From the NCBI RefSeq assembly GCF_051903065.1, contig NZ_CP178438.1: a DNA stretch of 64,000 bases; one strand, given 5' to 3'. The notes beneath the pieces were generated by a model. It made no database searches and was not told the origin of the DNA. It was given only the letters and a program-made list of their open reading frames with translations. This stretch comes from Escherichia coli (GTDB lineage Bacteria > Pseudomonadota > Gammaproteobacteria > Enterobacterales > Enterobacteriaceae). Shown here piece after piece: positions 1 to 58,725 of the stretch; the first letter of the stretch is position 1, and each line of letters starts with the position of its first letter. Position numbers and translations under genes: made by a program.

Positions 1-2079
<2,079 letters not shown>

Positions 2080-2173
2080 ACAACGCCGAAGCTGTTTTGG
2101 CGGATTGAGAGAAGATTTTCAGCCTGATACAGATTAAATCAGAACGCAGAAGCGGTCTGATAAAACAGAATTT

Positions 2174-2293
2174 GCCTGGCGGCCGTAGCGCGGTGGTCCC
2201 ACCTGACCCCATGCCGAACTCAGAAGTGAAACGCCGTAGCGCCGATGGTAGTGTGGGGTCTCCCCATGCGAGAGTAGGGAACTGCCAGGCATC
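2174..2293 (+). rRNA. rrf: 5S ribosomal RNA
   Basis: Matches the canonical E. coli 5S sequence from tgcctggcggccgtagcgcggtgg to gggaactgccaggcat. Confidence 0.96.
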
Positions 2294-9366: not shown

Positions 9367-10323
9367 TTACTTGTCCTGCCGCTGTGATGACATCAACGAC
9401 GTCAGAAGCCGGTCTTTTTCCTGCCACAGTGAGTTCAGCCATTGCTGAAAATGGCGCTTAAAGCTTTTGTCATTGATGTAGTCGCCATGTAACTCATCGG
9501 CAACAGGCTGCAAATCCACATGTACGACAATCCGCGTCAGTTTACCGCTTAACATATCGAAGAACGGCTGACGGTTATTGTCCGGATAACACAGCGTAAC
9601 ATTAAGCAGTTTATCGAATTGTTTACCCAGTACATTTAGCGCCATCGCAATGCCTGCCGCCTTTGGTGGCAACAAGTTTTGAAAAGTGGAGTGGGTTTGC
9701 TGATGTTTTTCTTGCGTGAAACGGGAGCCTTCAACGAAATTGACAATGGTGGTGGGATGCAGGCGAAACTTTTCACAAGAACGCCGAGTGGTTTCAACAT
9801 CTTTACCACGTCGCTCCGGATGACGTAATAAATAAGCGCGGGAATAACGCTTCATAAACGGCATATCCAGCGCCCAGCACGCCAGGCCAAGAAATGGCAC
9901 CCAGGCCAGCTGTTGCTTGAGGAAATATTTATTCATCGGAATGTGCTTACGAAACAGCACGCACAGTACGACAATATCTGCCCAACTACGGTGGTTACAA
10001 ATAAGCAGATACCAGTTCTTCTTACTTAACCCTTCCAGCCCGTGAACTTCCCATTGCAGGTGTGGGTTCAGATGCAGTAATACCGCCAGACCTTCACACC
10101 AGCAATACATCATAAAATCACAAAAACGCGAAACCTTTCGCCAAATGACTGGCACAGGTAGCAATAGTTTTACAATCCCGGCAATGATGATCGGGACGGA
10201 ACAAAAAATAGTGACCAAAATGGTCAATACGATACTCAGCAAAAGGGTTATCGCAGCGAGTATTCTCGTCATAATGAATTTATTCAAAAGGTTAGCCATA
10301 GACAGTGCGCTAAAGAAGCGCAA
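9367..10323 (-). CDS. yihG: Putative PlsC-family acyltransferase YihG
   Basis: 318-aa ORF with N-terminal membrane segments and the acyltransferase HxxxxD motif (NHRSWAD); K-12 position between yihF and polA. Confidence 0.85.
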
Positions 10324-10662: not shown

Positions 10663-13449
10663 ATGGTTCAGATCCCCCAAAATCCACTTATCCTTGTAGA
10701 TGGTTCATCTTATCTTTATCGCGCATATCACGCGTTTCCTCCGCTGACTAACAGCGCAGGCGAGCCGACCGGTGCGATGTATGGTGTCCTCAACATGCTG
10801 CGCAGTCTGATCATGCAATATAAACCGACGCATGCAGCGGTGGTCTTTGACGCCAAGGGAAAAACCTTTCGTGATGAACTGTTTGAACATTACAAATCAC
10901 ATCGCCCGCCAATGCCGGACGATCTGCGTGCACAAATCGAACCCTTGCACGCGATGGTTAAAGCGATGGGACTGCCGCTGCTGGCGGTTTCTGGCGTAGA
11001 AGCGGACGACGTTATCGGTACTCTGGCGCGCGAAGCCGAAAAAGCCGGGCGTCCGGTGCTGATCAGCACTGGCGATAAAGATATGGCGCAGCTGGTGACG
11101 CCAAATATTACGCTTATCAATACCATGACGAATACCATCCTCGGACCGGAAGAGGTGATGAATAAGTACGGCGTGCCGCCAGAACTGATCATCGATTTCC
11201 TGGCGCTGATGGGTGACTCCTCTGATAACATTCCTGGCGTACCGGGCGTCGGTGAAAAAACCGCGCAGGCATTGCTGCAAGGTCTTGGCGGGCTGGATAC
11301 GCTGTATGCCGAGCCAGAAAAAATTGCTGGGTTGAGCTTCCGTGGCGCGAAAACAATGGCAGCGAAGCTCGAGCAAAACAAAGAAGTTGCTTATCTCTCA
11401 TACCAGCTGGCGACGATTAAAACCGACGTTGAACTGGAGCTGACCTGTGAACAACTGGAAGTGCAGCAACCGGCAGCGGAAGAGTTGTTGGGGCTGTTCA
11501 AAAAGTATGAGTTCAAACGCTGGACTGCTGATGTCGAAGCGGGCAAATGGTTACAGGCCAAAGGGGCAAAACCCGCCGCGAAGCCACAGGAAACCAGTGT
11601 TGCAGACGAAGCTCCAGAAGTGACGGCAACGGTGATTTCTTATGACAACTACGTCACCATCCTTGATGAAGAAACACTGAAAGCGTGGATTGCGAAGCTG
11701 GAAAAAGCGCCGGTATTTGCATTTGATACCGAAACCGACAGCCTTGATAACATCTCTGCTAACCTGGTCGGGCTTTCTTTTGCTATCGAGCCAGGCGTAG
11801 CGGCATATATTCCGGTTGCTCATGATTATCTTGATGCGCCCGATCAAATCTCTCGCGAGCGTGCACTCGAGTTGCTAAAACCGCTGCTGGAAGATGAAAA
11901 GGCGCTGAAGGTCGGGCAAAACCTGAAATACGATCGCGGTATTCTGGCGAATTACGGCATTGAGCTGCGTGGGATTGCGTTTGATACCATGCTGGAGTCC
12001 TACATTCTCAATAGCGTTGCCGGGCGTCACGATATGGACAGCCTCGCGGAACGTTGGTTGAAGCACAAAACCATCACTTTTGAAGAGATTGCGGGTAAAG
12101 GCAAAAATCAACTGACCTTTAACCAGATTGCCCTCGAAGAGGCCGGACGTTACGCCGCCGAAGATGCGGATGTCACCTTGCAGTTGCATCTGAAAATGTG
12201 GCCAGATCTGCAAAAACACAAAGGGCCGTTGAACGTCTTCGAGAATATCGAAATGCCGCTGGTGCCGGTGCTTTCACGCATTGAACGTAACGGTGTGAAG
12301 ATCGATCCGAAAGTGCTGCACAATCATTCTGAAGAGCTTACCTTGCGTCTGGCTGAGCTGGAAAAGAAAGCGCATGAAATTGCAGGTGAGGAATTTAACC
12401 TTTCTTCCACCAAGCAGTTACAAACCATTCTGTTTGAAAAACAGGGCATTAAACCACTGAAGAAAACGCCGGGTGGCGCGCCGTCAACGTCGGAAGAGGT
12501 ACTGGAAGAACTGGCGCTGGACTATCCGTTGCCAAAAGTGATTCTGGAGTATCGTGGTCTGGCGAAGCTGAAGTCGACTTACACCGACAAGCTGCCGCTG
12601 ATGATCAACCCGAAAACCGGGCGTGTGCATACCTCTTATCACCAGGCAGTAACTGCAACGGGACGTTTATCGTCAACCGATCCTAACCTGCAAAACATTC
12701 CGGTGCGTAACGAAGAAGGTCGTCGTATCCGCCAGGCGTTTATTGCGCCAGAGGATTATGTGATTGTCTCAGCGGACTACTCGCAGATTGAACTGCGCAT
12801 TATGGCGCATCTCTCGCGTGACAAAGGCTTGCTGACCGCATTCGCGGAAGGAAAAGATATCCACCGGGCAACGGCGGCAGAAGTGTTTGGTTTGCCACTG
12901 GAAACCGTCACCAGCGAGCAACGCCGTAGCGCGAAAGCGATCAACTTTGGTCTGATTTATGGCATGAGTGCTTTCGGTCTGGCGCGGCAATTGAACATTC
13001 CACGTAAAGAAGCGCAGAAGTACATGGACCTTTACTTCGAACGCTACCCTGGCGTGCTGGAGTATATGGAACGCACCCGTGCTCAGGCGAAAGAGCAGGG
13101 CTACGTTGAAACGCTGGACGGACGCCGTCTGTATCTGCCGGATATCAAATCCAGCAATGGTGCTCGTCGTGCAGCGGCTGAACGTGCAGCCATTAACGCG
13201 CCAATGCAGGGAACCGCCGCCGACATTATCAAACGGGCGATGATTGCCGTTGATGCGTGGTTACAGGCTGAGCAACCGCGTGTACGTATGATCATGCAGG
13301 TACACGATGAACTGGTATTTGAAGTCCATAAAGATGATGTCGATGCCGTCGCGAAGCAGATTCATCAACTGATGGAAAACTGTACCCGTCTGGATGTGCC
13401 GTTGCTGGTGGAAGTGGGGAGTGGCGAAAACTGGGATCAGGCGCACTAA
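10663..13449 (+). CDS. polA: DNA polymerase I
   Basis: 928-aa ORF with 5'-3' exonuclease, 3'-5' exonuclease and polymerase motifs ([23 protein letters not shown]). Confidence 0.97.
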
Positions 13450-13596
13450 GATTCGCCTGAACATGCCCTTTTTTCGTAAGTAAGCAACATAAGCTGTCAC
13501 GTTTTGTGATGGCTATTAGAAATTCCTATGCAACAACTGAAAAAAAATTACAAAAAGTGCTTTCTGAACTGAACAAAAAAGAGTAAAGTTAGTCGC

Positions 13597-13705
13597 GTAG
13601 GGTACAGAGGTAAGATGTTCTATCTTTCAGACCTTTTACTTCACGTAATCGGATTTGGCTGAATATTTTAGCCGCCCCAGTCAGTAATGACTGGGGCGTT
13701 TTTTA
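13597..13705 (+). ncRNA. spf: Spot 42 small RNA
   Basis: Sequence gtagggtacagaggtaagatgttctatctttcagacc...gccccagtcagtaatgactggggcgtttttta matches Spot 42; canonical position between polA and engB. Confidence 0.9.
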
Positions 13706-13728
13706 TTGGGCGAAAGAAAAAATCCGCA

Positions 13729-13820
13729 ATGCCTGATGCGCCATGTTTATCAGGCCAACGGTAGAATTGTAATCTATTGAATTTACGGGCCGGATACGCC
13801 ACATCCGGCACAAGCATTAA
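13729..13820. repeat. REP (repetitive extragenic palindromic) elements
   Basis: gcctgatgcgccatgtttatcaggcc ... gggccggatacgccacatccggcac palindromic units. Confidence 0.6.
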
Positions 13821-13830
13821 GGCAAGAAAA

Positions 13831-14463
13831 TTATTCGCCGTCCTGCGTTTCTTCTACAGGCTGCATCTCGCTAAACCAGGTATCCAGTTTCTGCCGCAGC
13901 TTGTCCACGCCTTGTTTCTTCAACGAAGAAAACGTTTCAACCTGCACATCACCGTTAAACGCCAGTACAGCTTCACGCACCATATTCAATTGCGCTTTAC
14001 GTGCGCCGCTTGCCAGTTTGTCCGCTTTGGTCAGCAACACCAGCACGGCGATATTGCTGTCTACCGCCCACTCAATCATCTGCTGATCCAAATCTTTCAG
14101 CGGATGGCGAATATCCATTAGCACTACCAGACCTTGTAGGCTCTGACGTTTTTCGAGGTACTCGCCGAGCGCGCGCTGCCATTTGCGCTTCATCTCTTCC
14201 GGGACTTCCGCATAACCGTACCCAGGCAAGTCAACCAGACGCTTGCCGTCAGCCACTTCAAACAGGTTGATAAGCTGGGTGCGTCCTGGGGTTTTTGAGG
14301 TACGAGCCAGGCTTTTCTGGTTAGTCAGCGTGTTCAGCGCGCTGGATTTACCTGCGTTGGAACGGCCTGCAAAAGCCACTTCAATTCCGGTATCGGAAGG
14401 TAGGTGGCGAATATCAGGCGCACTCATCACAAAATGCGTCTGTTGATAATTCAAATTAGTCAA
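13831..14463 (-). CDS. engB: Ribosome biogenesis GTPase EngB (YihA)
   Basis: 210-aa ORF with G1 motif GRSNAGKSS and G4 motif TKADK. Confidence 0.92.
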
Positions 14464-14733
14464 AGCGGTCGTCTCCGTCAGTCAAAGCTTTGTGGCGATT
14501 ATACCTGAACCATAATAAAAGGCGGATTTTTCGGCGTGAGCGTTGTAAGTAAAAGCCATACGCTTTGTGAGACATTGCCGATAGTCTTTATGCGAAATAG
14601 CAGAGAAAATTCTGCGATGCATGTCAAATAAGCTATATAAATCAGTGAATTGCTTTTATATAAAACTCTGAAAATGTGCAAATACTGATGGCGGTTGATT
14701 GTTTGTTTAAAGCAAAGGCGTAAAGTAACACCC

Positions 14734-14978
14734 ATAGAGCGAGGACGCTAACAGGAACAATGACTCAGGATGAGGGTCAGGAGCGCCAGGAGGCGAAGAC
14801 AGAGGATTGTCAGGAAGACAAACGTCCGGAGACGTAATTAAACGGAAATGGAATCAACACGGATTGTTCCGGCTAATGGAAAAACAGGGTGTGTTGGCGG
14901 CCTGCAAGGATTGTAAGACCCGTTAAGGGTTATGAGTCAGGAAAAAAGGCGACAGAGTAATCTGTCGCCTTTTTTCTT
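14734..14978 (+). ncRNA. csrC: CsrC small RNA (CsrA-sequestering)
   Basis: About 245 nt with many GGA motifs (caggatgagg, caggagcg, caggaagac, ccggagacg, tcaggaaa...) ending in the terminator ggcgacagagtaatctgtcgccttttttc; canonical position between engB and yihI. Confidence 0.85.
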
Positions 14979-15044
14979 TGCTTGCTTTCTGTTAGATTCC
15001 GCCGCAAATCTATACTGAATAAAACGGCTAAAAGACGAACCATT

Positions 15045-15551
15045 ATGAAACCATCTTCACCATCACGCAGCAAAGGTCATGCAAAAGCGCGTCGCAAAAC
15101 GCGCGAAGAGCTGAATCAGGAAGCTCGTGACCGCAAGCGTCAGAAAAAACGTCGTGGTCATGCGCCGGGCAGCCGCGCAGCGGGCGGTAACACCACGTCA
15201 GGCAGCAAAGGCCAGAACGCACCAAAAGATCCACGTATTGGCAGTAAAACCCCTATTCCATTGGGCGTGACTGAAAAAGTCACCAAACAGCACAAACCGA
15301 AGAGTGAGAAACCTATGCTTTCACCGCAGGCGGAGTTGGAATTACTGGAAACGGATGAGCGTCTGGATGCGCTGCTGGAACGTCTGGAAGCAGGCGAAAC
15401 CCTGAGTGCCGAAGAGCAATCCTGGGTGGATGCTAAACTGGATCGTATTGATGAGTTGATGCAGAAACTCGGCCTCTCTTATGACGATGACGAAGAAGAG
15501 GAAGAAGACGAGAAGCAAGAAGACATGATGCGTCTGCTGCGGGGCAACTAA
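15045..15551 (+). CDS. yihI: Der GTPase-activating protein YihI
   Basis: Basic N-terminus [22 protein letters not shown]... and acidic C-terminus; start chosen at an internal ATG. Confidence 0.88.
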
Positions 15552-17164: not shown

Positions 17165-17275
17165 TGCTGAGAACAAGATTGCCTGATGCGCTACGCTTAT
17201 CAGGCCTACAAAACCTGTTGAAAATATTGCTTTTGTAGGCCGGATAAGGCGTTCACGCCGCATCCGGCATGAACA
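17165..17275. repeat. REP elements
   Basis: Palindromic gcctgatgcgctacgcttatcaggcctac ... gtaggccggataaggcgttcacgccgcatccggca units. Confidence 0.55.
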
Positions 17276-17302
17276 AAGAGCACTTCATCAGCAATCTGAA
17301 AC

Positions 17303-17413
17303 TCAACTAAACAGCCCAATCATCGCGGCACACAGCACGGCAGCAACAGCAGTTTGCGGTGTGTGGCTGTCAACTGCGCCACTCGATACCAGATTAATTA
17401 TTGATTCCAGCAT
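17303..17413 (-). CDS. yshB: Small membrane protein YshB (36 aa)
   Basis: Minus-strand ORF MLESIINLVSSGAVDSHTPQTAVAAVLCAAMIGLFS found by manual translation; known small-protein locus between hemN and glnG. Confidence 0.6.
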   Translation of the reverse strand: MLESIINLVSSGAVDSHTPQTAVAAVLCAAMIGLFS

Positions 17414-19995: not shown

Positions 19996-20168
19996 AAAGC
20001 AGTCTCCTGAACAGGTTGCACCATTTTAGTGCATTATAGCTTTTTACGGATAAAAAGCGCGAAGCATCAGAGAATTGACGGAGAAAAAAGCCCATGCAGA
20101 GATGGGCTGAAAGTTTCCACGGCAACTAAATCCCGGCGTTGTTGCGCCGGGTAGTACAACTTCAACTA

Positions 20169-21729: not shown

Positions 21730-21800
21730 GCTGCACCATGATGTGAATGTTGCACCAATATAGTGCTTCAATGGAAACATTAAGCACCATATTGGTGCAA
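21730..21800 (-). promoter_or_regulatory. NtrC enhancer-binding sites upstream of glnA
   Basis: Dyads of the TGCACC...GGTGCA type (gcaccatattggtgca, ttgcaccaatatagtgc, tgcaccatgatgtg). Confidence 0.55.
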
Positions 21801-21950
21801 TGACCTTTGGATAACCCTTTTTATGCTCCGTGAAAGCGATCACAAAGGGACTCTGCAATACTTGTTTGCGGAGGATGTTTGTGATCCTGTTTTGTAGTGC
21901 GATTAATCCGTGTACAATAACGCGCTATTTCTAATGCCTGAGGCAAAGTT

Positions 21951-23774
21951 GTGATCGAAAAATTGCGTAATATCGCCATCATCGCGCACGTAGACCATGG
22001 TAAAACCACCCTGGTAGACAAGCTGCTCCAACAATCCGGTACGTTCGACTCTCGTGCCGAAACCCAAGAGCGCGTGATGGACTCCAACGATTTGGAGAAA
22101 GAGCGTGGGATTACCATCCTCGCGAAAAACACCGCTATCAAATGGAATGATTACCGTATCAACATCGTTGATACCCCGGGGCACGCCGACTTCGGTGGTG
22201 AAGTTGAACGTGTAATGTCCATGGTAGACTCAGTGCTGCTGGTGGTTGACGCATTTGACGGCCCGATGCCGCAAACGCGCTTCGTAACCAAAAAAGCGTT
22301 TGCTTACGGCCTGAAGCCGATTGTTGTTATCAACAAAGTTGACCGCCCTGGCGCGCGTCCTGATTGGGTTGTGGATCAGGTATTCGATCTGTTCGTTAAC
22401 CTCGACGCGACCGACGAGCAGCTGGACTTCCCGATCGTTTACGCTTCTGCGCTGAACGGTATCGCGGGTCTGGACCACGAAGATATGGCGGAAGACATGA
22501 CCCCGCTGTATCAGGCGATTGTTGATCACGTTCCTGCGCCGGACGTTGACCTTGACGGTCCGTTCCAGATGCAGATTTCTCAGCTCGATTACAACAGCTA
22601 TGTTGGCGTTATCGGCATTGGCCGCATCAAGCGCGGTAAAGTGAAGCCGAACCAGCAGGTCACTATCATCGATAGCGAAGGCAAAACCCGCAACGCGAAA
22701 GTCGGTAAAGTGCTGGGCCACCTCGGTCTGGAACGTATCGAAACCGATCTGGCGGAAGCTGGCGATATCGTGGCGATCACGGGCCTGGGCGAACTGAACA
22801 TTTCTGACACCGTTTGCGACACGCAAAACGTTGAAGCGCTGCCGGCACTCTCCGTTGATGAGCCGACCGTTTCTATGTTCTTCTGCGTTAACACCTCGCC
22901 GTTCTGCGGTAAAGAAGGTAAGTTCGTAACGTCTCGTCAGATCCTGGATCGTCTGAACAAAGAACTGGTACACAACGTTGCGCTGCGCGTAGAAGAAACC
23001 GAAGACGCTGATGCGTTCCGCGTTTCTGGTCGTGGCGAACTGCACCTGTCTGTTCTGATCGAAAACATGCGTCGTGAAGGTTTCGAACTGGCGGTATCCC
23101 GTCCGAAAGTTATCTTCCGTGAAATCGACGGTCGTAAACAAGAGCCGTATGAAAACGTGACTCTGGACGTTGAAGAACAGCATCAGGGTTCTGTAATGCA
23201 GGCGCTGGGCGAACGTAAAGGCGACCTGAAAAACATGAATCCAGACGGTAAAGGCCGCGTACGTCTCGACTACGTGATCCCAAGCCGTGGTCTGATTGGC
23301 TTCCGTTCTGAGTTCATGACCATGACTTCCGGTACTGGTCTGCTGTACTCCACCTTCAGCCACTACGACGACGTACGTCCGGGCGAAGTGGGTCAGCGTC
23401 AGAACGGTGTACTGATCTCTAACGGTCAGGGTAAAGCGGTCGCGTTCGCGCTGTTCGGTCTGCAGGATCGCGGTAAGCTGTTCCTCGGTCACGGTGCAGA
23501 AGTTTACGAAGGTCAGATTATCGGTATTCATAGCCGCTCTAACGACCTGACTGTAAACTGCCTGACCGGTAAGAAACTGACCAACATGCGTGCTTCCGGT
23601 ACTGACGAAGCCGTTGTTCTGGTTCCGCCTATCCGCATGACTCTGGAACAAGCTCTGGAGTTCATCGATGATGACGAACTGGTAGAAGTGACTCCGACCT
23701 CTATCCGTATTCGTAAACGTCACCTGACGGAAAACGATCGTCGCCGCGCCAACCGCGCACCGAAAGACGATTAA
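21951..23774 (+). CDS. typA: Ribosome-associated translational GTPase BipA/TypA
   Basis: 607-aa ORF with G-domain motifs [18 protein letters not shown]. Confidence 0.95.
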
Positions 23775-23792
23775 TTTCGTTTTTTAGTTATA

Positions 23793-23823
23793 AAAAACCT
23801 GCCATCGCTGGCAGGTTTTTTTT
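23793..23823 (+). terminator. Rho-independent terminator after typA
   Basis: Hairpin aacctgccatcgctggcaggtt followed by a T-run. Confidence 0.6.
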
Positions 23824-23990
23824 TACCTGTCGTGAGCGCACACCAATGCGAGTATCTCCCTTATAAGTCTGTGATTACGTCAATAGAGAGCTTTGTCACA
23901 ATTATCTGCAAAGTCATACGCCGTTAATTGCTTTCTTTTTTGGCGTAAGCGTAAGATGCTTCATCTGGTTTAAACCAAAAGGATTAAACA

Positions 23991-24701: not shown

Positions 24702-24844
24702 GTGTTTTATGGTGACAATAAATAACGCAAGAAAGATTCTACAACGTGTCGACACTCTTCCTCTTTATTTACATGCTTATGCCTTTCATGGTGATGCTGC
24801 CAACTTACTGATTTAGTGTATGATGGTGTTTTTGAGGTGCTCCA

Positions 24845-25120
24845 GTGGCTTCTGTTTCTATCAGCTGTCCCTCCTGTTCAGCTACTGACGGGGTGGTGCG
24901 TAACGGCAAAAGCACCGCCGGACATCAGCGCTATCTCTGCTCTCACTGCCGTAAAACATGGCAACTGCAGTTCACTTACACCGCTTCTCAACCCGGTACG
25001 CACCAGAAAATCATTGATATGGCCATGAATGGCGTTGGATGCCGGGCAACAGCCCGCATTATGGGCGTTGGCCTCAACACGATTTTACGTCACTTAAAAA
25101 ACTCAGGCCGCAGTCGGTAA
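24845..25120 (+). CDS. insA: IS1 InsA
   Basis: Protein identical to the other IS1 copy; GTG start. Confidence 0.9.
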
Positions 25121-25542
25121 CCTCGCGCATACAGCCGGGCAGTGACGTCATCGTCTGCGCGGAAATGGACGAACAGTGGGGCTATGTCGGGGCTAAATCG
25201 CGCCAGCGCTGGCTGTTTTACGCGTATGACAGGCTCCGGAAGACGGTTGTTGCGCACGTATTCGGTGAACGCACTATGGCGACGCTGGGGCGTCTTATGA
25301 GCCTGCTGTCACCCTTTGACGTGGTGATATGGATGACGGATGGCTGGCCGCTGTATGAATCCCGCCTGAAGGGAAAGCTGCACGTAATCAGCAAGCGATA
25401 TACGCAGCGAATTGAGCGGCATAACCTGAATCTGAGGCAGCACCTGGCACGGCTGGGACGGAAGTCGCTGTCGTTCTCAAAATCGGTGGAGCTGCATGAC
25501 AAAGTCATCGGGCATTATCTGAACATAAAACACTATCAATAA
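25039..25542 (+). CDS. insB: IS1 InsB
   Basis: Protein identical to the other IS1 copy. Confidence 0.9.
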
Positions 25543-25556
25543 GTTGGAGTCATTAC

Positions 25557-25988
25557 CCAGATCGTATAGGTCAAAAAAGTCTGTATTTGTCGGGAGCAGG
25601 ATTTTGTGTCCTGTTCGCGTTTCCTTTCTTCTTATTACTGGATAGCAAAAGTACGCTCATCATCTGGTGCAGTATGATCCTCGGCTACAACTTAGGTCCG
25701 ACGATGATGTTTGCCGTGCAGCCAACACTTTTCACCCGCATGTTCGGTACCAAAGTACGATATACCGGCCTTTCTTTTGCTTATCAATTTTCCGCGATTC
25801 TTGGCGGACTAAGCCCCCTTATCGCCTCAAGTTTGCTGGCGCTAGGGGGAGGAAAACCGTGGTATGTCGCTCTGTTTTTATTTGCTGTCTCAGTTCTTTC
25901 CTTTGTTTGCGTCTGGCTGATTGAGCCGACCGATGAACAAGAAACCGCTTCTTACCGCTACATCAGGGAACAATCTCATGAAAACTGA
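25557..25988 (+). pseudogene. 3' fragment of an MFS-type transporter gene, 5'-truncated at the IS1 junction
   Basis: The reading frame is open from the first base after IS1 and encodes only the last ~4 hydrophobic helices (…FCVLFAFPFFLLLD…LGGLSPLIASSLLALGG…YVALFLFAVSVLSFVCVWLIEP…); there is no upstream start or N-terminal half. Confidence 0.6.
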
Positions 25989-36291: not shown

Positions 36292-39200
36292 TTACACCTT
36301 TTCCACATTCACAAGGAAGGACTTAAACTCCGGCGTCTGCGTGTTTGCATCACCAACGAATGGCGTTAACGTATTGGCAATAAAGCCTTTTTTAGCTACG
36401 CCTTCATAGCCCCAGTGAATCGGAATACCGATGGTATCGATATCTTTGCCGTTCGCTTTCAGCGTGCGAATACGTTTGGTCACCACCGCTTTGGCTTTGA
36501 TATAGCCACGGTTGGAGGAGACTTTCACGGTATCGCCCTGGGCAATGCCAAGTTTATTCGCCAGCGACTCCCCGATTTCCACAAACTGCTCTGGTTGCAA
36601 AATCGCGTTCAACAGCGCGTGTTTGGTCCAGTAGTGGAAGTGCTCGGTCAGACGATAGGTGGTTCCGACATACGGGAACTTATCGGCTTTACCCAATGCT
36701 TCGGCGTCGTCTTTAAAGATTCGCGCAGCCGGGTTCGAGATAACGTTTGGATGCAGCGGGTTAGTTCCCAGCGGCGTTTCAAACGGCTCGTAGTGTTCCG
36801 GGAACGGACCTTCCGCCATCTTATCGAGGGCAAACAGACGCCCCATGCCTTCCTGCTGCATGATAAACGGCCCGACGCCGCTACCCGGAGGCGCTGCGCT
36901 GTAGTCCGGAATATCCCAGCCGGTCCACTTAGTGCCGTCCCATTTCAGCAACTGACGCTTCGGATCCCACGGGTTACCCTGCGGATCTGCGGAGGCGCGG
37001 TTATACAGAATGCGGCGGTTAAGCGGCCATGCCCATGCCCAGCCCAGCGTGTTACCGAGGCCAGACGGATCGGCGTTATCACGGCGTGCCATCTGGTTGC
37101 CTTCCGGCGTCCAGCTACCGGCGAAAATCCAGCAGCCACAGGAGGTTGTACCGTCATCGCGCAATTGGGCGAACGAGCTAAGTTGTTGGCCTTTCTTGAC
37201 GATAACCGCACCGGTTGCCGGATCGGTAATATCGGCCAGCGCCTTACCGTTGCTCTCCATCGCTACTTCTTCCGACTTCGGCTCATGCGGAATGGCGTAG
37301 TTCCAGGTCATGTTCAGCACTTGGTCCGGGTTCGCGCCACCCTGTTCGGCATACATCTTGCGCAAGCGCAGGAAGATACCGGAGAGGATCTCGCCGTCAG
37401 TCAGCGCAATCCCCGGGGCGTCCGCACCTTTCCAGTGCCACTGTAACCAGCGACCTGAGTTAACGATAGAACCGTTCTCTTCCGCGAAGCAGGTCGATGG
37501 CAGACGGAACACTTCGGTCTGGATCTTCGACGAGTCAACTTCGTTCAGCTCACCGTGGTTCTGCCAGAAGTTAGAGGTTTCAGTGTTCAGCGGGTCGATG
37601 GTGACGAGGAACTTCAGTTTCGACAGACAACCGATCACTTTGTTTTTGTTCGGGAATGAGGCAACAGGGTTAAAGCCCTGGCAGATATAGCCATTGACCT
37701 TGCCCTCTTTCATCATCTCGAAGTATTGCAGGACGTCGTAGCCTTTATCCCACTTCGGCAACCAGTCAAAGCCCCAGCTATTTTCCGCCGTCGCTTTATC
37801 ACCAAAGAAGGCCTTCATCATGGAGACGAAGAATTTCGGGTAGTTGCCCCAGTAGTTTACCTGGCCTTCCAGCAGCGGTTTTGGCGTGTTGGCGGTAAGG
37901 TAGGTTTGCAGATCGGTCTGCTTCTCGCTTGGCAGCGTCATGTAACCTGGCAGGCTCTGCGACAGCAGCCCCAGGTCCGTCAGCCCCTGAATATTGGAGT
38001 GACCGCGCAGGGCGTTAACGCCGCCGCCAGCCATCCCCATGTTACCGAGCAGCAGCTGGATCATCGCCATCGTACGAATGTTTTGCGCACCAACGGAGTG
38101 TTGCGTCCAGCCGAGGGCATACAGGAACGAGGCAGTTTTATCGTGAGCACTGGTTTCTGCGATGTATTCGCAGACTTTCAGGAACGCGTCTTTTGGCGTA
38201 CCACAGATGTTTTCAACCACATCTGGCGTGTAGCGGGAAACGTGCTGTTTCAGCAAGTTCCACACGCAGCGCGGATGTTGCAGCGTGGTATCGCGTTTGG
38301 CGAAGCCGTTTTCGTCCAGTTCGTAAGTCCAGGAGGATTTATCGTACTTGCGTTTTTCCGCGTCGTAGCCGGTGAACAGGCCATCTTCAAAGCCGTAATC
38401 CTCACGCACGATCAGGCTGGCGTTGGTATAGGCTTCGGTGTATTCGCGGTTGAATTTTTCATTGTTCAGCAGGTACAGCAATACGCCTGACAGGAAAGCA
38501 ATGTCAGTACCGGAACGAATAGGGGCATAGTAGTCAGCCACCGCAGCCGTACGCGTAAAGCGAGGATCGATCACAATCAGCTTCGCGCCATTGTGAATTT
38601 TGGCTTCCATCGCCCAGCGGAACCCGACCGGGTGAGCTTCAGCGGCGTTACCGCCCATCACCACGACGAGGTTGGCGTTCTTGATGTCGACCCAGTGGTT
38701 GGTCATCGCACCGCGACCAAATGTTGGAGCAAGACTTGCTACCGTTGGTCCGTGTCAGACACGCGCCTGGTTGTCGACCGCGAGCATACCCAGCGCGCGG
38801 GAGAATTTTTGCGTTAAATAGCCGGTTTCGTTACTCGACGCGGAAGCACACAGCATCCCGGTGGAGAGCCAGCGGTTAACAGTCACGCCTTCGGCGTTTT
38901 GCGCAATGTAGTTAGCATCGCGGTCTTCTTTCATCAGTTTGGCGATGCGATCAAACGCCTCTTCCCAACTGATTTGCTGCCATTTATCAGAACCTGGCGC
39001 ACGGTATTCCGGAAACTTCAGACGGCTTTCGGAGTGGATGAAATCCACCAGGCCAGCGCCTTTCGGACAAAGTGCACCGCGGTTGACCGGGTGATCCGGA
39101 TCGCCTTCGATATGGAAGATAGATGCTTTGGCGTTTTTTGCTCCGTCACCGAGGCTGTACATCAACAGCCCACAGCCTACGGAACAATAGGTGCAGGTAT

Positions 39201-46820: not shown

Positions 46821-48215
46821 ATGAAAAAATCGACATTATCTTTAGCCATCGGTTTATTATTGGCATGTAGTACCGGTATGGCAAAAACACAGCATTTAAC
46901 GCTGGAACAACGCATGGCATTGCTGGAAGAACGCCTGGAAGCGGCAGAAATGCGGGCGGCAAAAGCAGAGAGCCAGGTTAAACAGCTGCAGACACAACAA
47001 GCCGCTGAGATCCGCGAAATTAAGGCTGCCCAGGGCAATACGCCGGTAAATGGACAGACAACAGCGGAATCTGCAAAGAAAAATGCCACCTCACCTAATC
47101 TTTTGCTTTCAGGTTATGGCGATTTAAAAATCTACGGCGACGTAGAATTTAATATGGATGCGGAAAGTAATCATGGCCTGCTGGCAATGACCAACGCTGA
47201 TGTGAATAGCGATTCCACCAATGAACAGTGGAATCTCAATGGTCGTATTCTGTTAGGTTTTGATGGTATGCGAAAACTGGATAATGGCTATTTCGCCGGG
47301 TTCTCCGCACAACCGCTGGGGGATATGCACGGTTCAGTAAATATCGATGATGCGGTATTCTTCTTTGGCAAAGAAAACGACTGGAAGGTCAAAGTAGGCC
47401 GTTTTGAAGCCTACGATATGTTCCCGCTGAATCAGGATACCTTTGTTGAACATTCCGGTAATACTGCGAACGATCTTTATGACGATGGCAGCGGTTATAT
47501 CTATATGATGAAAGAGGGCCGCGGGCGCTCTAACGCTGGCGGTAATTTCCTCGTCAGCAAACAACTCGATAACTGGTATTTTGAATTAAACACGTTACTT
47601 GAAGACGGAACATCTTTATATAATGACGGTAATTATCATGGACGCGATATGGAGCAGCAGAAAAATGTTGCTTATCTGCGCCCAGTAATTGCCTGGTCGC
47701 CGACGGAAGAATTCACCGTTTCCGCAGCGATGGAAGCGAACGTGGTAAATAATGCTTATGGTTATACCGATAGCAAGGGTAATTTTGTCGATCAGTCCGA
47801 TCGTACCGGCTATGGTATGAGCATGACCTGGAATGGCTTGAAAACGGATCCGGACAATGGCATTGTGGTTAATCTTAATACCGCCTATTTAGATGCTAAT
47901 AATGAGAAAGATTTCACTGCCGGGATTAACGCGCTGTGGAAACGTTTCGAGCTCGGTTATATCTACGCGCACAATAAGATTGATGAATTCAGCGGTGTAG
48001 TTTGTGATAACGACTGCTGGATTGATGATGAAGGGACGTACACCATTCACACCATTCATGCGTCTTATCAGTTCGCTAATGTGATGGATATGGAGAACTT
48101 TAATATTTACCTCGGGACGTATTACTCCATTCTGGATAGCGACGGCGATAAAAAACACGGTGATGATACTGATGACCGTTACGGCGCACGCGTTCGCTTT
48201 AAATACTTCTTCTGA
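46821..48215 (+). CDS. Putative outer-membrane beta-barrel porin with an N-terminal coiled coil (carbohydrate-porin-like)
   Basis: Signal peptide MKKSTLSLAIGLLLACSTGMA, then a heptad-like stretch (LTLEQRMALLEERLEAAEMRAAKAESQVKQLQTQQAAEIREIK), then alternating aromatic/polar beta-strand patterns ending in the OMP-type C-terminus RFKYFF; AT-rich upstream region. Confidence 0.6.
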   Translation: MKKSTLSLAIGLLLACSTGMAKTQHLTLEQRMALLEERLEAAEMRAAKAESQVKQLQTQQAAEIREIKAAQGNTPVNGQTTAESAKKNATSPNLLLSGYGDLKIYGDVEFNMDAESNHGLLAMTNADVNSDSTNEQWNLNGRILLGFDGMRKLDNGYFAGFSAQPLGDMHGSVNIDDAVFFFGKENDWKVKVGRFEAYDMFPLNQDTFVEHSGNTANDLYDDGSGYIYMMKEGRGRSNAGGNFLVSKQLDNWYFELNTLLEDGTSLYNDGNYHGRDMEQQKNVAYLRPVIAWSPTEEFTVSAAMEANVVNNAYGYTDSKGNFVDQSDRTGYGMSMTWNGLKTDPDNGIVVNLNTAYLDANNEKDFTAGINALWKRFELGYIYAHNKIDEFSGVVCDNDCWIDDEGTYTIHTIHASYQFANVMDMENFNIYLGTYYSILDSDGDKKHGDDTDDRYGARVRFKYFF

Positions 48216-49431: not shown

Positions 49432-49847
49432 GTCGGATGCACGACCCGTAGGCCGGATAAGGCGCTCGTGCCGCATCCGGCAATCAATGCCTGATGCGAC
49501 GCTGTCGCGTCTTATCAGGCCTACAACTATTGCCGACCTGTAGGCCGGATAAGGCACTTGTGCCGCATCCGGCAATCAATGCCTGATGCGACGCTGTCGC
49601 GTCTTATCAGACCTACAACTATTGCCGACCTGTAGGCCGGATAAGGCGCTCGTGCCGCATCCGGCAATCAATGCCTGATGCGACGCTGTCGCGTCTTATC
49701 AGGCCTACAACTATTGCCGACCTGTAGGCCGGATAAGGCACTTGTGCCGCATCCGGCAATCAATGCCTGATGCGATGTCGCGTCTTATCAGGCCTACAAC
49801 TGTTGCCGACCTGTAGGCCGGATAAGGCACTTGTGCCGCATCCGGCA
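49432..49847. repeat. BIME: tandem array of about 4.5 REP-pair units (~91 bp each) between rhaD and rhaA
   Basis: The unit gcctgatgcgacgctgtcgcgtcttatcaggcctacaactattgccgacctgtaggccggataaggc[gctcg or acttg]tgccgcatccggcaatcaat repeats with minor variants. Confidence 0.88.
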
Positions 49848-58629: not shown

Positions 58630-58725
58630 CGGAGTGTAGGCCTGATAAGACGCTATCAGCGTCGCATCAGGCATCCTGCTCAAATGCCGGATGCGGCGTA
58701 AACGCCTTATCCTGCCTACAAATGC
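58630..58725. repeat. REP elements
   Basis: gcctgataagacgctatcagcgtcgcatcaggc ... gccggatgcggcgtaaacgccttatcctgcctac. Confidence 0.6.

Follow-up and report, generated by a model that had tools for sequence, protein, structure and literature searches.

Transcription of spf is repressed by cAMP-CRP, so that its product, Spot 42, accumulates when glucose is available. Together with Hfq, Spot 42 base-pairs through its single-stranded regions at the translation-initiation regions of mRNAs needed to use non-preferred carbon sources (galK and many others), and in a feed-forward loop with CRP it strengthens catabolite repression. CsrC acts on a protein: its GGA motifs bind CsrA dimers and titrate CsrA away from its mRNA targets. 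In Escherichia coli K-12, CsrC binds and sequesters CsrA, and its turnover proceeds via CsrD and RNase E. Spot 42 has also been described as a dual-function RNA, as Aoyama and colleagues reported that the short protein SpfP encoded within it is translated and binds CRP (PMC8916003). For csrC of E. coli, a UvrY-binding inverted repeat with an additional half-site has been published, within a ChIP-exo region extending from −223 to −143 (PMC4682653). The equivalent repeat of CsrB is a nearly perfect palindrome, TGTGAGAGATCTCTTACA, and activation there is helped by IHF, while csrC has a weaker UvrY repeat without an apparent IHF site (PMC4682653).

We analyzed a 64-kb stretch of E. coli DNA (hereafter the window), in which a preliminary description had placed intact copies of these two RNA genes, each with its intrinsic terminator, on either side of engB. 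It had proposed Rfam covariance models as the check, and both models matched over their full length and far above their gathering scores. With Rfam release 15 at gathering thresholds, exactly two matches were found between positions 10000 and 19000, Spot_42 and CsrC, and the same scan was repeated over the whole window. Spot_42 (RF00021) aligned to 13587-13705 of the plus strand over all 115 model positions (E = 5e-25); it scored 122.8 bits, the gathering score being 80, and the model begins 10 nt 5' of the transcript start. CsrC (RF00084) aligned to 14734-14987 of the same strand over all 255 model positions (E = 1.6e-88) and scored 277.9 bits, for a gathering score of 61. When the K-12 MG1655 annotation was transferred to the window by global alignment, the boundaries proposed for both genes proved right to within 1 to 2 nt at their 3' ends. 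The gene between them is engB (yihA), as had been stated, with a TIGR03598 match on the minus strand, convergent with spf and divergent from csrC. Transferred annotation and NCBIfam matches, including one to HemN at 807 bits in the flanking gene, together give the order polA-spf-yihA-csrC-yihI-hemN. Both RNA genes are at their normal E. coli positions, and both are already known and present in essentially every E. coli genome. We are virtually certain that the stretch contains two independent, intact, and well-characterized regulatory RNA genes of E. coli flanking yihA/engB, a conclusion reached from the data assembled here on family membership, K-12 identity, structure, terminators, GGA content, the UvrY site, synteny, and conservation. 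The features are collected in Table 1.

Table 1. Features of the spf-yihA-csrC locus, in window coordinates.
Feature	Position	Strand	Evidence and remarks
polA, DNA polymerase I	10663..13449	+	NF004397, 1254 bits; K-12 b3863; upstream neighbor fixing the synteny
CRP-like candidate	13505..13520	+	TGTGATGGCTATTAGA; centered at −84.5 from spf +1; 2 mismatches to TGTGA-N6-TCACA
Likely spf −10 hexamer	13584..13589 (−13 to −8)	+	TAAAGT; inferred from a reading of the sequence and the distance from the K-12 transcript start
spf, 109-nt Spot 42 RNA	13597..13705	+	RF00021; K-12 b3864; predicted Hfq-dependent base-pairing sRNA, probably also an mRNA
spfP, 15-codon ORF inside Spot 42	13615..13662	+	MFYLSDLLLHVIGFG; translation; K-12 b4837 with 0 mismatches
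Spot 42 intrinsic terminator	13673..13704	+	11-bp G+C-rich stem, 4-nt loop, T6; terminator scan and MFE structure
Two REP-like palindromes	13731..13809		GCCTGAT..ATCAGGC 13731-13755 and GCCGGAT..ATCCGGC 13789-13809; sequence reading; in the convergent spf/yihA spacer
yihA (engB), ribosome-biogenesis GTPase	13831..14463	-	TIGR03598 YihA/YsxC, 252.2 bits, cut-off 124.45; K-12 b3865, 7 substitutions
csrC UvrY-binding region (predicted)	14544..14583	+	Half-site TGTAAG 14544-14549, 16 bp, then TGTGAGACATTGCCGATA 14566-14583
Likely csrC −10 hexamer	14721..14726 (−13 to −8)	+	TAAAGT; placed by a reading of the sequence and the distance from the K-12 start
csrC, predicted 245-nt CsrA-sequestering sRNA	14734..14978	+	RF00084; K-12 b4457; 14 GGA motifs
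RefSeq/PGAP pseudo-CDS	14760..14926	+	'hypothetical protein; frameshifted; internal stop'; csrC nt 27-193, spanning the 25-aa and 39-aa ORFs
csrC intrinsic terminator	14939..14978	+	Core GGCGACAGA-GTAA-TCTGTCGCC 14948-14969, T6 14970-14975, extended by A-run/U-run pairing
yihI, Der GTPase-activating protein	15045..15551	+	NF003560, 169.9 bits; K-12 b3866, one codon fewer here; downstream neighbor

The intactness of spf is borne out base for base: K-12 b3864 maps to 13597-13707 with 0 mismatches over all 111 annotated nucleotides. Spot 42 folds with a minimum free energy (MFE) of −40.6 kcal/mol (z = −5.1), a value that 200 shuffled sequences all failed to reach. MFE and centroid structures agree on a 5' hairpin, a 12-nt single-stranded linker, a second hairpin, the terminator hairpin, and a U-tail, and the intrinsic terminator was recovered both in this fold and by a terminator scan, which placed its stem at 13673-13698 followed directly by TTTTTT. 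What identifies this RNA as Spot 42 is the model score, the identical K-12 transcript, the three-hairpin fold, the context between polA and yihA, and the spfP ORF with its Shine-Dalgarno sequence.

Sequence identity to K-12 extends beyond the transcript to the whole of 13467-13720, which includes the spf promoter, and any CRP site that K-12 uses is consequently retained. The promoter elements of spf are put forward on the strength of this identity rather than of detection here. A scan of 13400-15100 for the strict sigma-70 consensus did not find a promoter; the −10 hexamers suggested for both genes are weak-consensus readings, and evidently neither promoter conforms to that consensus. The CRP-like sequence upstream of spf was discarded as evidence because such matches occur at chance level, with 30 found in the window and 26.5 expected. 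In the spacer between spf and yihA, a repeat search with a minimum arm of 8 nt returned none, the arms of the REP-like palindromes being 7 nt long.

Within Spot 42, spfP is intact, with a Shine-Dalgarno sequence GAGG at 13607-13610, an ATG at 13615, and a TGA at 13660-13662, and the view of Spot 42 as a purely non-coding RNA is one that needs correction. The SpfP peptide is identical in 12 of 12 homologs, where the ORF is invariant at the nucleotide level as well and so offers no synonymous changes by which a coding constraint could be separated from one on the RNA. spfP is annotated as a CDS in K-12 and in a genome 100% identical to the window over 13400-15100. This bears on the earlier statement that neither sRNA is picked up by ORF-based annotation. 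For spf the statement needs qualifying, since the spfP CDS is present in K-12 and in recent PGAP records, and ORF-level annotation is thus not wholly blind to the gene; it holds insofar as neither spf nor csrC is given as an ncRNA feature in the RefSeq/PGAP records that we opened. Older PGAP runs named the product of the spfP CDS 'spot 42 RNA, inhibition of DNA synthesis'.

csrC departs from K-12 b4457 at a single base. The K-12 gene maps to 14734-14979 with 245 of 246 positions identical, the one mismatch being 14877 (nt 144), which is T here and A in K-12, and with the full-length family match this upholds the description of the gene as intact. Its MFE structure (−87.4 kcal/mol, z = −6.8) was again better than those of all 200 shuffles, and the intrinsic terminator that had been proposed is present both in this structure and in the terminator scan. 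The terminator pairs are conserved among 16 sequences; one of them, the pair that closes the loop, shows a compensatory change. GGA motifs are concentrated in the transcript: its 14 copies compare with 3.2 ± 1.9 per 245 nt in the window, of which csrC is the maximum, the next highest count being 11. When placed on the Rfam consensus structure, 6 of them fall in hairpin loops and 5 in single-stranded linkers, an arrangement that is as would be expected of a CsrA sponge. The assignment to CsrC draws on the model score, these exposed GGAs, the location between yihA and yihI and divergent from yihA, the upstream UvrY repeat, and the terminator.

The UvrY repeat, TGTGAGACATTGCCGATA, is an 18-nt imperfect inverted repeat centered at −159.5 of csrC. 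Sequence and spacing are exactly as published, and it lies inside the −223 to −143 region (PMC4682653). The combination TGTAAG-N16-TGTGAGACATTGCCGATA occurs once in the window as an exact match, with 0 expected by chance. Upstream of csrC the window departs from K-12 at one base only, 14728 (−6), where it has A and K-12 has G.

Both genes are nearly universal among complete E. coli genomes: spf was found in 5,424 of 5,426, all at ≥99% identity, and csrC in 5,424 of 5,426, with 5,359 at ≥99% identity, while at least 80% of 13400-15100 is held by 5,422 of the 5,426. Two complete chromosomes, NZ_CP083585.1 and NZ_AP045789.1, are 100% identical to the window over 13400-15100, and both carry A at 14728 and T at 14877. 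Of 20 rows sampled at even intervals through the ranking, 6 matched the csrC transcript allele of the window (14734-14978, including 14877) at 100% identity, O157:H7 strains among them. The allele is thus common in E. coli, at roughly 30% of the sampled genomes, a frequency that refers to the transcript from 14734 onward; the A at 14728 was seen in the two identical chromosomes alone.

For a wider comparison, one genome per species was scanned with a 16-mer from csrC, AGCGCCAGGAGGCGAA, which gave at least 120 loci, mostly chance matches in unrelated phyla; usable among the matches listed were 15 loci from nine genera of Enterobacteriaceae. Rfam found CsrC in all 15 (140-276 bits), and in each of the 12 loci with long enough flanks it placed Spot_42 on the same strand some 1.1 kb upstream, so that the order spf-yihA-csrC is kept across nine enterobacterial genera. 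The 12 Spot 42 homologs, from 9 genera, are 95% to 99% identical overall with the first ~78 nt invariant, and across genera this conservation begins abruptly at the transcript start. CsrC is 67% to 87% identical outside E. coli. Its 15 homologs carry 13 to 15 GGA motifs, and at 12 of the 14 GGA positions the motif is absent from one homolog at most; the hairpin that holds the search 16-mer AGCGCCAGGAGGCGAA is invariant in this alignment by construction and counts for nothing. RNAalifold, applied to a MAFFT alignment of CsrC, gave 46 consensus pairs, 8 of them with compensatory changes, a partial recovery of the Rfam structure that reflects misalignment of the 5' hairpins in the most divergent genera.

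Current annotation offers a different account of the csrC stretch, in which it is a decayed protein-coding gene and not an RNA gene. The pseudo-CDS sits at the identical position in 5 of 5 PGAP records opened, all 20 of the E. coli records sampled show a 'hypothetical protein' at csrC, and the stretch does contain ORFs of 25 and 39 aa, along with others of 23, 22, and 23 aa on the plus strand and one of 47 aa on the minus strand. Against this, the CsrC model matches at full length with 277.9 bits, K-12 has the ncRNA b4457 at this place, and no E. coli record among those examined has the CDS intact. The ATG at 14760 with which the pseudo-CDS starts is kept in only 2 of 15 homologs, as is the intact 39-aa ORF, and the 22-aa and 23-aa ORFs toward the 3' end of csrC are intact in 1 of 15 each. 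Indel lengths within the ORFs are frequently not divisible by three; conservation is seen instead in the GGA motifs and hairpins. On this comparison of homologous sequences, none of the ORFs over csrC behaves as a conserved coding sequence would, and we regard a decayed gene as extremely improbable. The preliminary description had called these ORFs spurious, and rightly so: none is conserved across genera, and PGAP itself can annotate the stretch only as a pseudogene, with a frameshift and an internal stop. A variant of the coding argument would make CsrC a dual-function RNA like Spot 42, one of its short ORFs encoding a lineage-restricted micropeptide. For this role the ORF of 23 codons at 14770-14841 is the strongest candidate; it is intact in 7 of 15 homologs, all of them E. 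coli or Citrobacter. We consider such a micropeptide very improbable; it retains some small weight because the conservation in E. coli and Citrobacter is inseparable from constraint at the level of the RNA, the ATG of this ORF sitting in the GGAUGA loop of a CsrA-binding hairpin.

Accepting csrC as an RNA gene, one could still suppose that one of the two genes is impaired here, for instance through the A at −6 of csrC (14728) or the U at nt 144 (14877) weakening transcription or a CsrA site. Nowhere else do csrC and its promoter region differ from K-12, and 14877 is the base directly 5' to a GGA motif. In the consensus structure of Rfam, however, 14877 falls in a hairpin loop as its last unpaired base, the GGA next to it is intact, and other genera have G, A, C, or T in this column. 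The transcript allele, with its T at 14877, recurs in about 6 of 20 rows taken at even spacing from the 5,424 genomes, which likewise speaks against a defect. Every one of the 14 GGAs is intact, as are terminator and UvrY site, and impairment seems scarcely credible. Nor do we give any credence to a chance resemblance or to a wrong family, such as CsrB in place of CsrC. CsrB and CsrC do belong to one Rfam clan (CL00106, the CsrA-sequestering RNAs of CsrB/RsmB type) and have a GGA-rich architecture in common, but the E values of 1.6e-88 and 5e-25 come with complete model coverage, CsrC is the best-scoring member of the clan here, and the locus is the yihA-yihI intergenic region, the place of csrC in K-12, with a sequence near-identical to b4457.

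With both genes intact, we infer their expression, their binding of Hfq or CsrA, their target sets, and their regulatory inputs from the literature on identical sequences. Spot 42 would be made when glucose is present and cAMP-CRP is low, and with Hfq it would pair at the ribosome-binding regions of mRNAs for secondary carbon sources; the window itself contains none of these targets. Besides this pairing, SpfP may directly damp activation by CRP (PMC8916003). On the other side of yihA, BarA would phosphorylate UvrY, its partner in a two-component system, which would activate csrC transcription via the inverted repeat at 14566-14583, and the GGA motifs of the resulting RNA would bind CsrA dimers and relieve CsrA control of its mRNA targets (PMC4682653).

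For the biology of E. coli there is nothing new in this, spf and csrC being core and long-studied genes. The consequence is one for annotation. Pipelines that rely on PGAP RefSeq records of the kind examined would overlook both of these global regulators and add a nonexistent pseudogene to their counts, the csrC pseudo-CDS being an annotation artefact that recurs across the sampled RefSeq E. coli records. In the case of spf, the label 'non-coding' needs care because of spfP inside it.

Set beside its K-12 counterpart (b3864, RF00021), Spot 42 of the window is identical in the gene, in the upstream region 13467-13596, in the terminator, and in the polA-spf-yihA context. The nearest differences are substitutions at 13721, 13727, and 13742 in the REP-containing downstream spacer, with a further 1-bp indel at 13466, downstream of polA. 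CsrC shares with that of K-12 (b4457, RF00084, clan CL00106) its length, its 14 GGAs, its terminator, the UvrY repeat with the TGTAAG half-site, and the order yihA-csrC-yihI, and differs from it at 14877 (U against A) and at 14728 (−6, A against G). The paralogous CsrA sponge CsrB resembles CsrC in its many GGA hairpins, its transcription activated by UvrY at a distant upstream repeat, and its Rho-independent terminator (PMC4682653), but is a different and longer gene at a different locus.

The csrC gene, which encodes the CsrA-sequestering sRNA, carries an internal pseudo-CDS in RefSeq/PGAP annotation, described as "hypothetical protein; frameshifted; internal stop" and found at the identical position in all 5 of the records that were opened. 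More broadly, csrC was listed with "hypothetical protein" in every one of the 20 genomes sampled, and neither csrC nor spf, the Spot 42 gene, has an ncRNA feature in those 5 RefSeq/PGAP records. The csrC pseudo-CDS looks like a propagated annotation artefact. The treatment of spf varies among records: recent PGAP annotations call the 48-nt spfP CDS within it (13615-13662) "small protein SpfP", older ones use the product name "spot 42 RNA, inhibition of DNA synthesis", and many records leave the spf span without any feature. The older product name places the name of an RNA on a protein feature.

The spf and yihA genes are convergent, and the 125-bp spacer between them contains 2 REP-like palindromes. 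Relative to K-12 MG1655 (hereafter K-12), this spacer has 3 substitutions (13721, 13727, and 13742), which fall in or beside the first palindrome. Features from across the window, including other small RNAs and RNA elements, are collected in the table below.

Features located in the window, with strand where assigned and supporting details
Feature	Position	Strand	Details
23S rRNA gene, 3' two-thirds	within 1-2290		cut by window start
5S rRNA gene	2175-2290		after 23S rRNA gene
REP-like imperfect palindrome	13731-13755		GCCTGAT...ATCAGGC; spf-yihA spacer
REP-like imperfect palindrome	13789-13809		GCCGGAT...ATCCGGC; spf-yihA spacer
Pseudo-CDS inside csrC	14760-14926		RefSeq/PGAP; 5 of 5 records opened
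ES222 sRNA	21762-21869	+	Rfam, 133 bits; glnA-typA intergenic, directly upstream of typA/bipA
STnc370	23759-23827	+	Rfam, 54.9 bits vs gathering score 54; marginal
SECIS_3 selenocysteine insertion element	38702-38760	-	84 bits; within fdoG
RafY-type glycoporin gene	46821-48215	+	PF16966, 513 bits; between frvA and rhaM
naRNA4 (REP325-type), 5 tandem units	49451-49794	+	spacing ~92 bp; rhaD-rhaA spacer
naRNA4, one further copy	58639-58716	-	
ES036	63721-63762	-	Rfam, 44.6 bits vs gathering score 37.6; marginal

With these two rRNA genes, an rrn operon located upstream of the polA region comes to its end. ES222 was also found in the E. coli and Citrobacter werkmanii loci that were compared. The gene containing the SECIS_3 element, fdoG, encodes the formate dehydrogenase-O alpha subunit and is labelled fdnG by PGAP.

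Further differences from K-12 occur elsewhere in the window. The yihI gene is one codon shorter (168 versus 169 amino acids; position 15052), and there are several indels in the hemN-yshB spacer (17192-17303). The glnA 3' UTR (20108-20157), where the sRNA GlnZ (b4836) is annotated in K-12, is ~110 bp shorter, with ~48 bp in place of ~160 bp, and the strain therefore has a short GlnZ variant. In place of the 14.2-kb sulfoquinovose catabolism cluster that runs from yihM to csqR in K-12, this strain has only ~2.1 kb (24789-26939), with an IS1 element (PF03400), a truncated gene for an MFS transporter, and a gene for an aldose 1-epimerase. Between fabY and yiiE, ~2 kb not present in K-12 (30276-32120, + strand) carries a 614-amino acid ORF, which matched no Pfam family and which PGAP presents in an identical genome as a truncated "hypothetical protein" and a 305-amino acid "transposase". 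K-12 also lacks the RafY-type glycoporin gene of the frvA-rhaM interval. Its naRNA4 repeat array is the same as the one in the window.
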